DNA of 64,000 nucleotides from a virus (taxonomy: Duplodnaviria; Caudoviricetes), in the IMG/VR virus record IMGVR_UViG_3300035208_002804, positions 64,001 to 128,000 of that record. The stretch is one strand, 5' to 3'. Position 1 is the stretch's first letter. Every line of letters begins with the position of its first letter. The translations under genes were made by a program, and so were the position numbers. The notes beneath the pieces are model-generated. The model searched no databases. It saw nothing but the letters and a program-made list of their open reading frames with translations, and was not told the origin of the DNA. Shown piece by piece: positions 100 through 57,993 of this stretch.

Positions 100-200
100 T
101 TAGGGTTAAAAATGTAAATGCTTCCCAGAGAGCGAAGCGAGCAAAACACCATAACAAAGAAAAGAAAAAGAGAGGATCCTTTCCTTGCTATCTGTGGCAC
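100..200 (-). ncRNA. Candidate structured ncRNA, family copy 1
   Basis: TTTAAATA box (222-229), GTGC start 21 nt downstream, stem AUAGCAAGG/CUUUGUUAU, GAAAGGATCCTC plus a pyrimidine tract shared with copy 3. The 3' end is approximate. Confidence 0.6.
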
Positions 201-249
201 TATATTTTATAGCATTACTATTATTTAAATATATCTGGTAAAAATGATT

Positions 250-936
250 TTAGTAAATGTAAGTTTCTGCTATTAAACTTCCAATTTGATCTTGAGTTAA
301 TGCTTTTGTAAATATTTGTAAATCTTTTATATTTCCTAAACTGTAGATTGAATTTAGTCCTCCTATGTTTAATGTCGATGCTATATCTGTTGCAACTTCT
401 GTAAATGCAACAGTAGTTGTTACTGTTTGACTGACGTTGTTAATATAGATTATACAGTCAGAACCCAATCTTTCTACTGTTATATAATACCAAGTTCCTG
501 CTACAGGTGTAAGTGGGCATGAATAACTAAATGTTGCTGTTCCTGATATCTTTCCAGTTAATGTGATTGTATTTCCTGTTGTCCATTGTAACATCCAGTA
601 ATTATTTGCATCTGCGTATTGACCAATGATCATTCTATTTGCAGCAATTGTCGTAAAGTTTATCCATCCGCATATAGTGAAATTATTTAAGAACATTGAC
701 CAAATTTCATGATCTGAAATGGTGATATAATTAGTAGACCCGTCAAATTTCCAGTAACTACGGCCATCCTTACTTTTAATGCTGGTAAACGTGCCAGATG
801 GAGTTACTGTTACACCATCGGGTAAGATTTGGAACCCATATTTATTTCCATCTTCGTCATATGTTCCTGATGCTGCAAATTGCCCAGGCCAATGCAATAT
901 ACAGTTATTTTGTTTTAGGGCTTCAATATTAATCAT
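250..936 (-). CDS. LamG/concanavalin A-like adhesin
   Basis: FDGSTNYI, FTICGWI, GTWYYITV, IGG and IKDLQIFTKALT motifs typical of Laminin_G_3; paralog of 1661..2410. Confidence 0.85.
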   Translation of the reverse strand: MINIEALKQNNCILHWPGQFAASGTYDEDGNKYGFQILPDGVTVTPSGTFTSIKSKDGRSYWKFDGSTNYITISDHEIWSMFLNNFTICGWINFTTIAANRMIIGQYADANNYWMLQWTTGNTITLTGKISGTATFSYSCPLTPVAGTWYYITVERLGSDCIIYINNVSQTVTTTVAFTEVATDIASTLNIGGLNSIYSLGNIKDLQIFTKALTQDQIGSLIAETYIY

Positions 937-1664
937 TCGACACCTCTAATTCCCGATATAATTGGATACAAAGTAGTCCCTGTAATTGGATGAGTTTTAA
1001 TTCGATACATTTTCATTTCTGGAATGGTAAGCATTCGTCCAATCCAAATTGCAATTGGTCCAAACATGCCATTAGTAAAACCGGAACTCGCAACACTTCC
1101 AAAATATAAATTTGTATTAGAAGCATACAATGCAATAGATGATGTCGCAGACATAGTTATATCAGATACACAATCCAAATAATATCCAAACGTCGAACCA
1201 TTTCTTGTAAATGTTAATAAATACCATGTATTTGCAGATAATGCGGTATTTGATGTTCCTTCAGATATCCAACTAGATCCACCACTTGATATATCTATAA
1301 TTACTTTGCCCAATGTTCCAAGATATATAGCCATGGGGGTAAGATAACCTCCGGTAAGTCTACCATCTAATAAATAATTGTTTGAAGATGTTGGATTTAC
1401 CAAATTTACCCACATGCAAATCGTATAATTGTTTGCGCCAAATAACATACTTGAAACGGCTGCATATGGCGTTGTAATATATTGTGAATTTGCAGCAACA
1501 AGTGTTAATGCAGATCGATTATTACCCAAATTTGTATACGTTGGAGATCCATATGCAGTTACTGATCTATTTACAATTATCTCGCTTGTATTACCATTTA
1601 GTGGCAAATAAAACACGCAGTTTGCAAACAGTTCTTGATAGTGTTTATACCATGTTACGGTCAT
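933..1664 (-). CDS. LamG/concanavalin A-like adhesin
   Basis: YTICMWV, NTWYLLTFTR and LYFG motifs; 4-nt overlaps with both neighbours. Confidence 0.8.
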   Translation of the reverse strand: MTVTWYKHYQELFANCVFYLPLNGNTSEIIVNRSVTAYGSPTYTNLGNNRSALTLVAANSQYITTPYAAVSSMLFGANNYTICMWVNLVNPTSSNNYLLDGRLTGGYLTPMAIYLGTLGKVIIDISSGGSSWISEGTSNTALSANTWYLLTFTRNGSTFGYYLDCVSDITMSATSSIALYASNTNLYFGSVASSGFTNGMFGPIAIWIGRMLTIPEMKMYRIKTHPITGTTLYPIISGIRGVE

Positions 1665-2410
1665 GAAAGTCTCCAGTAATCATAAGGACCGGGAATCAAA
1701 CCTTCACCCGTAACCGGATGAGTTCTGTTCATCAACAGTTTGATCTCTGGTAATGACAATGCACGAGTAAAGATCATGAGATCTTTGATATTACCATTGT
1801 GAAATGCTGTTAATGGCGATGTCATTCCAATTGTTAATGGGGCTGCATAATTAGGTATTGTTCCAAATGCAACAATAACGGTTGTAAAATTAAATACAGC
1901 ATTTATATAAATCAAACAATCGGTCCCAGATCTTACAACGGTAATATAATACCAAGTTCCGGTATTTGGTAAATCACCGCGAGTATATGACATTACAGCA
2001 GATTCATTATATCCCTTTATTATGTAATATTGTGCTAAATTGTCATATTTTATGTACCAGTAAACAGTGTCAGATACATATTGTCCAATATTTATACCTC
2101 TATCAGATATCGAATCAAACTTTACCCAAAATGACACAGTAAAATTACTGTTATGAAAACTCCATGCATCGTTATCAGATAACGAAATATAATTCGTTGA
2201 TCCATCAAAATTTAGCACACTTTTGTTATTACCTAAATCATCTTTTGTAAAGGTTCCATTGTTAGTAACAGTTACACCAGTAGGTATAATTGGAAACTCA
2301 TCAATATCACCAGATACACCAGCAGAATGTTGACCTGTAAACCAAAATATGCACGAATTAAATAGTGAGGGGAATTTTGAGGCTCCGTAAGAAGTTCCCA
2401 TTATTGGCAC
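1661..2410 (-). CDS. LamG/concanavalin A-like adhesin
   Basis: FDGSTNYI, FTVSFWVK, GTWYYITV and GNIKDLMIFTRALS motifs. Confidence 0.85.
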   Translation of the reverse strand: MPIMGTSYGASKFPSLFNSCIFWFTGQHSAGVSGDIDEFPIIPTGVTVTNNGTFTKDDLGNNKSVLNFDGSTNYISLSDNDAWSFHNSNFTVSFWVKFDSISDRGINIGQYVSDTVYWYIKYDNLAQYYIIKGYNESAVMSYTRGDLPNTGTWYYITVVRSGTDCLIYINAVFNFTTVIVAFGTIPNYAAPLTIGMTSPLTAFHNGNIKDLMIFTRALSLPEIKLLMNRTHPVTGEGLIPGPYDYWRLS

Positions 2411-2411
2411 C

Positions 2412-56131: not shown

Positions 56132-56240
56132 CTATATTATATGTTAGTTACCATACTTATTAAAGTTTTCGGGGGTAATCGACGTAAATAACATAGTCCA
56201 ATGACCAAATAGGCATCGTTACATCCTTTAAACTCATTCC

Positions 56241-56899
56241 CTAATGTCAACGTAACACGAATAACAAATTTACATCGATATAAGAACAAATAGACCAATT
56301 ATATAGATAATTTTGTTACGTTTTAATTAGCACGTGATTTCAAACATGTATGGGGGTCTACCATTTATAGACGTTCTAATAAGAGTGATCTATATACTTA
56401 TCAACCCCACTCTGAACCCACTTTGCTTCCCATTTCGTTGTTATATTTCTTCTCTAATCGCAACGTAACACAACCAATCAATTATATCCACTTCCAGACA
56501 AATCCAAGCATTTTAAAAGATAATTTTGTGACGTTCTGATTAGGGTGAGGTTTACAACATATGTGGGGTATCGGTCTCAAATTACCAAATAGACCACAAA
56601 TTATTGATATTTACGATCACTCATTTTACAACAATTCACTAATAATCTATCATGATTAATCATTAACAATTATTAATAATGTATAGTCAATTCACCTATC
56701 ATACCAATAATCTATTATATCCACATACTACCTTTAGAATAGAAAACAGACAATAGATTACCCTTCATCTTCCTCACCACTATCTTTCCTAATGGCAACG
56801 TAACATAAATCTCTATTCTCCTTACGTTTCAGGCAATTCCACTCAATTTAAACAAGATAAATGTTACGTTGTGATTAGAGCGAACCCCTGAACATGTAT
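56241..56899. repeat. Three 90-bp units: 17-bp inverted arms around a 56-bp AT-rich spacer
   Basis: CTAATnnCAACGTAACA-N56-TGTKACGTTnnnATTAG at 56241-56330, 56454-56543 and 56789-56878, each followed 12 nt later by AACAT. Confidence 0.95.
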
Positions 56900-57439
56900 A
56901 CCCTATGCCACCTATTTTCCTAATTAGAGTTCAATATGAGGTGTTTCCACGATCAGTAATATATCTATGATGAGTAGTATATCAGGTAGTATAGTTATTA
57001 GTCTAACGGATAGTATAGTAGATAGTATAGTAAATAACACAATGAATATTATTACGATCCTGCTACCCACATTACGCGCAATCACCATATGACAAAATAA
57101 CCCTAATTTATGGAGTAAATATTGGGACGCCTTCGTTTAAATTTTCTATCTCTAAAATTTAATCCCTAAATAACAATTAAATCTCAAAATAGCCTTAAAA
57201 TATCTTTTAAAAATGTACCGAACGCCATAGTAAGGTAGGTCGTTAGTCTCCCTTCCAGCGTTCTTATTATGGTTGTTAATAGTATATAAACCTTGTGTTA
57301 TTTAAGGGTGTAGAGGAGTGGTAGTAGTAACAATTTCAACATTCGTAACACCACAATTCACAGATTCAATACTTATTTAACCCAATACAACCAACATAAT
57401 AAGGCATAATTAAAGATAGTTATTGGAGTTATTTAAAAA

Positions 57440-57700
57440 ATGTGCTATAAGAATTGTATCTCATGTGAATACTATAGAAATATATTTATCAGTCTTCACA
57501 AGATCTATGGAACTAACAAACAATTTACACTTAAAGATGCAAGAACCAAGATAAAGGAATATACCAATGAGATTCATCGTAAGTTTACATCCAATGAGAT
57601 CATCAAATGTGTAGATAAAATACCGTATGGGGTCAATATCTATTCTATAAACAAAGATGCCACTACAATGCTAACCGTAAAACCAAAGCGACAACATTAA
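57440..57700 (+). CDS. Hypothetical protein, possible winged-helix
   Basis: CISC, FTLKDAR...YSIN pattern; GGAG RBS. Confidence 0.5.
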   Translation: MCYKNCISCEYYRNIFISLHKIYGTNKQFTLKDARTKIKEYTNEIHRKFTSNEIIKCVDKIPYGVNIYSINKDATTMLTVKPKRQH

Positions 57701-57779
57701 GAGGATGATAATAAATAGTTGACTATTCAACCATTGCATTAATAGTTCTATATAGAACCAATTTCTCTATTCTTTTTAC

Positions 57780-57993
57780 TCACCCGTAACAACTATCTAC
57801 TTACAACATTTATAAGATTCTCATGTCGATCTGTATTGTTAAAACTTAATCTAACGTGGTTTTAATGACAACAGTTACATGCTCAAAAACTCATAACAAA
57901 ACAAAAAGAAAGAGAGAAAAGAGTTCCCTTTCTTATGGGTTGATTGTTCTGTTAGTTTTCCACACTGACAACAAATTCTTACAATGTCGTCTC
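57780..57993 (-). ncRNA. Candidate structured ncRNA, family copy 6
   Basis: TTTATATA at 58014-58021, 11-bp stem UAACAGAACAA/UUGUUUUGUUA, TTGTTATGAGTTTTTGAGCATG, ACAATACAGATCGA shared with copy 4. Confidence 0.65.

Follow-up and report, generated by a model that had tools for sequence, protein, structure and literature searches.

To our knowledge, very little is known about the regulatory RNAs, transcription programs and replication starts of archaeal tailed viruses. The closest described elements are the repeats of classes I and II between genes of HF2 (Haloferacalesvirus), which are present in seven plus two copies of 29-58 bp, act as promoters in experiments, contain a start-site block, occupy conserved positions throughout the genus, and give rise to 18- and 35-kb transcripts together with counter-transcripts (PMC8707807). 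Here, we describe a family of dispersed units of approximately 100 bases, each joining a promoter to an RNA hairpin, in a stretch of 64,000 nucleotides (nt) from a large tailed virus whose promoters are of archaeal type (hereafter the window), which comprises bases 64001-128000 of the 136,274-bp IMG/VR record IMGVR_UViG_3300035208_002804 (G000; estimated completeness, 95%). Similar to the HF2 repeats, which are thought to be read by virus-encoded regulators, these units are dispersed and intergenic in a tailed archaeal virus, possess a TATA box and start block found at no other place in the genome, and are kept in both sequence and position among related viruses. On the other hand, HF2 repeats stop at the start site and have neither a conserved transcribed hairpin nor U-runs, their promoter activity is experimental whereas the G000 units are known from sequence, and the two families share no sequence similarity.

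The minimal replication origins of phage T4 provide another precedent. They are approximately 100 bp long and consist of a factor-dependent promoter and an A+T-rich unwinding element, with at least seven putative sites and the use of a viral RNase H (PMC3016281). The units resemble T4 oriF and oriG in their length of about 100 bp, their apparently factor-dependent promoter, the A+T-rich tract downstream of it, the presence of several copies and a viral RNase H; in addition, T4 synthesis is one-directional along transcription, which matches the polar G>C shift described below. The units contain a class-specific promoter, but the A+T-rich tract downstream of it, a possible counterpart of the unwinding element, is a structured purine/pyrimidine hairpin. 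In T4, however, the unwinding element needs no particular sequence or RNA fold, whereas the hairpin in G000 is under selection, and T4 encodes a primase and a helicase. For the G000 units, R-loops and an origin role are hypothetical. Further transcript-primed comparators include the primary origin of T7, RNA II of ColE1, and the mitochondrial primer made from the light-strand promoter to conserved sequence block II (LSP-CSBII).

Stem-loops located just past a promoter govern the choice between early stop and kilobase-scale read-through in several bacterial viruses, such as lambda (nut sites with N, and the 6S RNA of PR′-tR′ with Q) and HK022 (put RNA). The units share with nut and put an RNA stem-loop right after the promoter, and would likewise yield short terminated RNAs as a by-product; unlike the units, these systems are bacterial and have one to three sites per genome, and an antiterminator protein has not been identified in G000. 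We know of no processive antitermination by a virus in archaea. Herpesvirus saimiri, a eukaryotic virus, produces small RNAs (HSURs) that contain a canonical Sm site and are proven to bind Sm proteins. Like RNAs of the HSUR, Sm-class or Hfq type, the units are multi-copy, have their own promoters, and place a stem-loop before a putatively single-stranded U-run flanked by purines (UGAG-U4-5-GAG). By contrast, their U-run varies between relatives and Sm binding by them is conjectural. Recognition of U-tracts by aCPSF1 through its KH domains has been reported (preprint 10.1101/2021.05.26.445813, published as PMC8716108).

The promoter-hairpin family is real and new, and has several candidate roles. 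Its RNA elements are backed by covariation, keep their positions among relatives, number 10-12 copies per genome, and have a promoter class of their own that is tied to a measurable polarity in the DNA.

Architecture and RNA-level selection

The G000 genome contains 11 copies of the unit. Six of them (c1 to c6, Table 1) lie inside the window, at exactly the loci that an earlier sequence-only reading had taken for a family of six. Two complete relatives recovered by terminase and portal searches, G001 (143.5 kb; terminase 49% identical to that of G000) and G002 (127.3 kb; portal 71% identical to that of G000), have 10 and 12 copies, respectively. In each unit, a TATA box is followed by an RUGC start 28-29 nt from the first base of the box, a CA-rich single strand, a hairpin with a purine arm and a pyrimidine arm, and U-runs. 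The unpaired leader measures 8-14 nt in 27 of the 29 analyzed copies and is 76% A+C. The 5′ arm of the hairpin is rich in purines and the 3′ arm in pyrimidines, and the paired motifs UAACAR and UUGUUAU close it; T-runs of at least five occur within the 3′ arm in 22 of 29 copies, and a U-run of at least four is found within 30 nt past the hairpin in 19 of 29, starting 4-5 nt after the stem in nine of these. Column identity between copies is only 38-57%; conserved parts include the base of the stem and the UGAG-U4-5 trailer. A covariance model built from 16 compact copies returned family copies only at significant E-values across 421 kb.

The promoter part is equally distinctive. The pattern TTTAWATA-N20-21-GTGY has eight matches in the 136-kb genome, all of which are family copies, and its reversed control has none. 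The promoters of the six loci are as previously described, the G of GTGC lying 28-29 nt past the first TATA-box base in c1, c2, c3 and c5, while c4 and c6 have 5′ extensions; these start positions were deduced from TATA spacing, not from mapped ends. Within each genome, the copies share a conserved -18 to -1 block, which differs between the three viruses and was not found at ordinary TATA-ATG promoters. In many ordinary genes, most clearly in G001, the ATG follows a TATA box at a distance of about 30 nt, so the same spacing may mark transcription starts in the units, which look like individually promoted starts. In G001, start codons peak approximately 30 nt past the first TATA-box base with no ribosome-binding site in between, a spacing that is the archaeal leaderless pattern; neither G000 nor G002 has a clear peak of TATA-to-start-codon distance.

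Several lines of evidence show that the covariation of the hairpin arms is real. In a MAFFT alignment of the compact copies, 95% of the cells are paired in register, compared with 49-75% when the partner is slid, double changes between AU and GC occur at two pairs, and none of 500 shuffles attained the observed value. When 28 distinct copies were aligned to the model, 93.8% of the cells were paired, with changes on both sides at five pairs and again 0 of 500 shuffles attaining the value, although an alignment made to the model is biased toward the structure by construction. Copies of the same genome are also paralogues, so that shuffle tests overstate independence. An arm-swap test that does not depend on folding, in which fixed 3′ arms were set against whole 5′ regions, gave -13.4 kcal/mol for own arms and -10.7 kcal/mol for swapped arms (permutation p<5e-5), and the difference holds within each genome as well. 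Moreover, the fold is strand-specific (mean -16.1 kcal/mol; reverse complement, -7.8 kcal/mol; p=4e-9), owing to a share of 19% of G-U pairs, and this suggests that selection acts on RNA and on the strand downstream of the TATA box. RNA-level selection on the hairpin is therefore supported, as the sequence-only reading had supposed, and the arm pairings that it listed were recovered by minimum-free-energy folding.

No protein product or known RNA class could be assigned. Open reading frames (ORFs) from the 5′ end span 0-44 codons, stops fall inside the conserved stem, six copies have no start codon, and no reading frame is conserved among the copies; a small peptide was rejected on these grounds. 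Rfam gave no match over the whole window at the gathering score, and in E-value mode its best match among five copies had E=0.14 and 23 bits against a cut-off of 50 bits. C/D box small RNAs are likewise not indicated, as reading across the copies found no C (RUGAUGA) and D (CUGA) boxes and Rfam no snoRNA. In both respects, the earlier statements that no frame is conserved and that no known RNA class is recognized were borne out, and the shared blocks described downstream of c4 and c6 and of c4 and c5 are present. Other parts of that description were too broad or failed: GAAAGG, said to occur in each copy, is absent from c4, and a second stem led by GUUGU finds no support, since GTTGT is present in only 6 of 29 copies and the folding of the 49 nt past the hairpin does not surpass that of shuffled sequence (mean z +0.47). 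In several G000 copies, the 5′ GUGC pairs with a GCAY located downstream; as this pairing is inconsistent in G001 and G002, it was dropped as a family feature.

Conserved positions and polar strand asymmetry

Gene-neighbor mapping matched 10 or more of the 11 G000 copies to units of the same orientation at corresponding positions in G002, and several to such units in G001. Positions and orientations are kept even though the proteins of these viruses are only 30-70% identical, and the positionally kept copies include the convergent pair c2/c3, the copy adjoining the RNase H gene and a copy upstream of nrdD. The members of the c2/c3 pair enclose no gene and are located between the tail chaperone and tape-measure genes, with c3 directed at the latter; c3 and its G002 orthologue share an identical 12-nt leader. 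Nine of the 11 G000 copies lie upstream of co-directional genes, some of which lack a TATA box themselves. Neighboring units alternate in orientation in 23 of 29 pairs (p=0.001), and convergent neighbors are close, with a median distance of 3.7 kb compared with 14.7-17.2 kb for the others (p=1.4e-5). The RNase H gene (RVT_3/RNase_H, 42153-42566) lies directly downstream of c4, and the same gene follows the G001 and G002 orthologues of c4.

The units are also associated with a change in strand composition. The G-C excess on the RNA-like strand was compared between the 3 kb downstream and the 3 kb upstream of each unit after subtraction of the mean coding-strand effect, a correction that relies on crude ORF calls. 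The excess is higher downstream at 29 of 33 units in the three genomes (mean shift, +0.044 per base), whereas ordinary promoters show no such shift, with a downstream rise in 27 of 62 (units versus promoters, p=1e-7). The shift persists at distances of 1.5 and 5 kb, at 18 of 19 units flanked by equal coding context, and at 25 of 28 once close convergent pairs are merged (p=1.4e-5). It implies that a one-directional process, several kilobases long, begins at the units. The strongest case is c4, immediately after which GC skew in all three viruses rises from about -0.1 to between +0.3 and +0.6 and remains high for 5-8 kb. G>C asymmetry is also found to the right of c2, over head genes. After the c4 block, the skew in G000 and G002 flips to about -0.5; the negative block ends at the c5 orthologue in G002, and in G000 it becomes weaker at c5 and stops close to c6. 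At the E5/c1 pair, the skew changes in the opposite sense.

Between 42000 and 54000 of the window, the skew is +0.34 to +0.59 from just past c4 to about 46500, including two minus-strand genes, and -0.5 to -0.65 from 48000 to about 53000; G+C content is 25-30% in the negative half and 31-44% in the positive block. At the skew flip, 46466-49822 contains no ORF of 80 or more amino acids, and includes repeats with a 20-nt period and TGTACA-type words (48205-48314) as well as an A-run and CT-rich repeats (48350-48402). This region could be a candidate terminus, origin or regulatory region.

Candidate roles of the units

We favor, tentatively and with confidence somewhat short of even, a reading in which the units are intergenic promoter repeats of a class specific to the virus, each joined at its start site to a conserved and structured RNA leader, and in which long transcription units would begin at them. 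The TATA box would be bound by the host RNA polymerase with TBP and TFB, and the -18 to -1 block is probably recognized by a factor which the virus encodes and which would regulate all copies together. The RNA would begin at RUGC, with its CA-rich single strand of 8-14 nt, and continue into the hairpin, with U-runs in the 3′ arm and the trailer; the leader may serve as an RNA-level control point near the promoter, either as an attenuator or as an antitermination signal similar to nut and put. Polymerases that stop at the leader would release hairpin RNAs of 50-110 nt, and those that pass it would continue for kilobases, sense or antisense. We infer each of these elements, namely transcription of the units, partial termination at the U-runs, the regulator, and transcription as the cause of the asymmetry. 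The promoter-leader reading covers the conserved promoter block and RNA fold, the placement at unit starts, the HF2 precedent and the polarity, whose fading with distance fits transcription.

Several observations weigh against it. Some genes downstream of units have a TATA box of their own, and c2, which is kept in all three viruses, and c5 lack co-directional downstream genes, as do their counterparts in the relatives. Pyrimidine- and T-rich tracts are the usual terminators after the genes of this virus, and the 3′ arm resembles them; with T-runs of at least five in 22 of 29 copies, such a terminator-like arm means that long read-through would need antitermination. The reading would accordingly require both read-through of the U-runs and antisense transcription from c2 and c5, and no candidate for the regulator or antiterminator was identified. 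Furthermore, the G>C block after c4 crosses genes of the opposite strand, an observation no less consistent with DNA replication than with transcription.

The main rival, a reading that we regard as unlikely but worth serious attention, takes the units for scattered sites at which DNA synthesis starts from RNA primers. Leading-strand synthesis along the direction of transcription would be primed by the short transcript or by the purine part that RNase H trimming leaves of it, convergent pairs would represent bidirectional origins, and the units would replace a primase. A fuller form, to which we give the same low credence, proposes that leading-strand primers for both strands would come from about eleven co-regulated, alternating cassettes, in a lineage that encodes PolB, PCNA and RNase H and has no recognizable primase or helicase. 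Such starts would account for a polar shift that begins at the units, extends for at least 5 kb, is independent of the coding strand, is absent at ordinary promoters, and runs over genes of the opposite strand beyond c4 in all three viruses and over head genes right of c2; the alternating orientation, the close convergent pairs and the gene-free c2/c3 interval are consistent with them as well. Pfam searches of the three viruses found no archaeo-eukaryotic primase (AEP), Prim-Pol, Toprim primase or MCM, although PolB, PCNA and RNase H are encoded, and the RNase H gene directly follows c4 and its G001 and G002 orthologues, with T4 oriF and oriG as a close precedent (PMC3016281). However, the selected structure is a G-U-rich RNA hairpin, and self-folding RNA competes with an R-loop; the skew at the E5/c1 pair goes the wrong way; and the skew fades with distance, which resembles transcription more than fork passage. 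The failure of Pfam to find a primase is also weak evidence, as a host primase could serve.

It is still less probable that the units act in trans, as short hairpin RNAs that terminate in the U-runs after about 50-110 nt and bind or titrate a host or viral protein recognizing a hairpin with a U-tail (Sm-like, or aCPSF1/FttA), in line with the sponge role proposed by the sequence-only reading. The terminator-like U-runs immediately after the promoter, the conserved stem base and UGAG-U4-5 trailer, the copies without a downstream gene, the dosage that multiple copies would raise, and U-tract recognition by aCPSF1 KH domains all point in this direction; the kilobase-scale downstream polarity and the alternating paired layout would nevertheless be left unexplained. 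Any binding partner would be hypothetical, an LSM gene was not found in the three viruses, and the complementary matches of the 5′ leaders in the viral genomes are only 10-12 nt, which is the chance level. Guide-like RNAs, which the sequence-only reading had also suggested, receive no backing, because the leaders have no viral targets beyond chance and neither an RNA-guided nuclease (TnpB-like ORFs are restricted to G001) nor a reverse transcriptase is common to the three viruses. We consider it very improbable that the units are DNA-level punctuation only, that is, terminators or insulators at module borders with an incidental TATA box and an RNA without a role. They do lie at conserved module borders, often just past a co-directional gene (19 of 31 copies), and pyrimidine tracts are normal terminators in this virus. 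Yet several upstream genes already end in T-runs of their own ahead of the TATA box, so that the unit is not simply their terminator, about 12 of the 31 copies have no co-directional gene upstream, and the exact spacing between TATA box and start and the -18 to -1 block would be purposeless in a plain terminator. The least probable explanation is a mobile element similar to miniature inverted-repeat transposable elements, or tiny genes for hydrophobic peptides. Dispersed copies and one near-identical duplicate in G002 agree with the former, and a purine-then-pyrimidine order could encode a charged-then-hydrophobic peptide. These ideas are already largely refuted: the unit begins at the TATA box, ends after the hairpin and has no terminal inverted repeats, and so does not belong to that class of elements, the highly diverged copies keep their positions and orientations across diverged viruses, and the peptide fails on its reading frames as described above.

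If true, either of the two leading readings would be new for archaeal viruses, as an RNA leader that gates long transcription or as transcript-primed origins. Should the units prime replication, this would be the first description, in an archaeal virus, of a multi-origin replication system that is primed by transcripts. Independently of their role, the covariance model together with the promoter pattern provides a means to recognize this virus lineage.

Coordinates, relatives and neighboring repeats

Table 1. Copies of the promoter-hairpin unit in the window and their positional orthologues (window coordinates; CM, covariance model)
Copy	Span	Strand	TATA box	Start	Hairpin	Further features	CM score (bits)	Orthologues
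c1	138..229	-	229-222	G 200	191-151	9-nt leader; U4 after hairpin	55.2	
c2	24343..24461	+	24343-24350	G 24372	24384-24447	inner stem-loop; faces c3		G001 77182+; G002 17399+
c3	24735..24826	-	24826-24819	G 24798	24789-24748		50.3	G002 17669-
c4	41765..41920	+	41765-41772	GTGC 41802 (37 nt after TATA)	41813-41907	short 5′ extension; long hairpin		G001 93737+; L012; G002 33650+
c5	54428..54543	+	54428-54435	G 54457	54467-54530	UGAG-U5 after hairpin		G002 50779+
c6	57880..58021	-	58021-58014	TATA+28 = 57993; GTGT 57965	57954-57894	UGAG-U5 after hairpin		G002 57157-

Among the genes of the tailed virus G000 are those for a large terminase, for a tail tube and for tail proteins, and an ORF of 2,294 amino acids occupies the position of the tape measure. 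It further encodes PCNA, RNase H, RtcB, PolB and NrdD, the last two each bearing an intein of the LAGLIDADG type; the PolB, NrdD and RtcB genes lie outside the window (genome positions 27779-31264, 48216-51251 and 45696-46889). The RNA ligase RtcB has its nearest homologues in Clostridia and Selenomonadales at approximately 50% identity, and was rejected as a pointer to the host because such a similarity identifies none. A reverse transcriptase (RVT_1) was not detectable in the G000 genome, and no tRNA or tmRNA was found in the window or the genome. G001 differs from G000 and G002 in having four tRNA genes (922-2186 and 137398-137542) and the two TnpB-like ORFs (19184-19387 and 87291-87488).

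Only four related records are known. The terminase search matched G001 and two short fragments, one of which (L012, representing a fourth virus) contains one copy of the unit, and the portal search matched G001 and G002. Portal searches found no further relatives among metagenome contigs and no provirus among genome contigs, and G001 was the sole match of a glycosyltransferase search. Scans of IMG/VR with the exact motif and with promoter-plus-arm patterns gave mostly chance matches; a single possibly related match, L029, is a fragment from the same sample as other relatives. In G002, the copies at 109889(-) and 127214(-)/81(-) are identical over approximately 88 nt, one of them lying in the terminal overlap of the record, which indicates a recent duplication or gene conversion in the family.

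Short repeats accompany some of the copies. Direct repeats of the types TAGTTAC(C/G)(G/A)G and TAGTGACGG/GTGACAGCGG occur on the plus strand at 54217-54648 and 42022-42176 of the window, six to eight flanking c5 and three following c4, and look like binding sites of a DNA-binding protein. Between the convergent copies c2 and c3, AGTGTTAC/T recurs at 24579 and 24600, as it does in G002 at 17511, 17532 and 17591, and it is also present near a few other G002 copies (six seen versus 0.4 expected). Both kinds of repeat were rejected as family-wide features because they are local, the former to c5 and c4, and the latter to c2/c3 and a few G002 copies. In addition, the stretch 24890-25100 of the window, listed as intergenic or as a weak plus-strand ORF, shows coding-like conservation with G002, and the gap on the c3 side is thus shorter than it appears.

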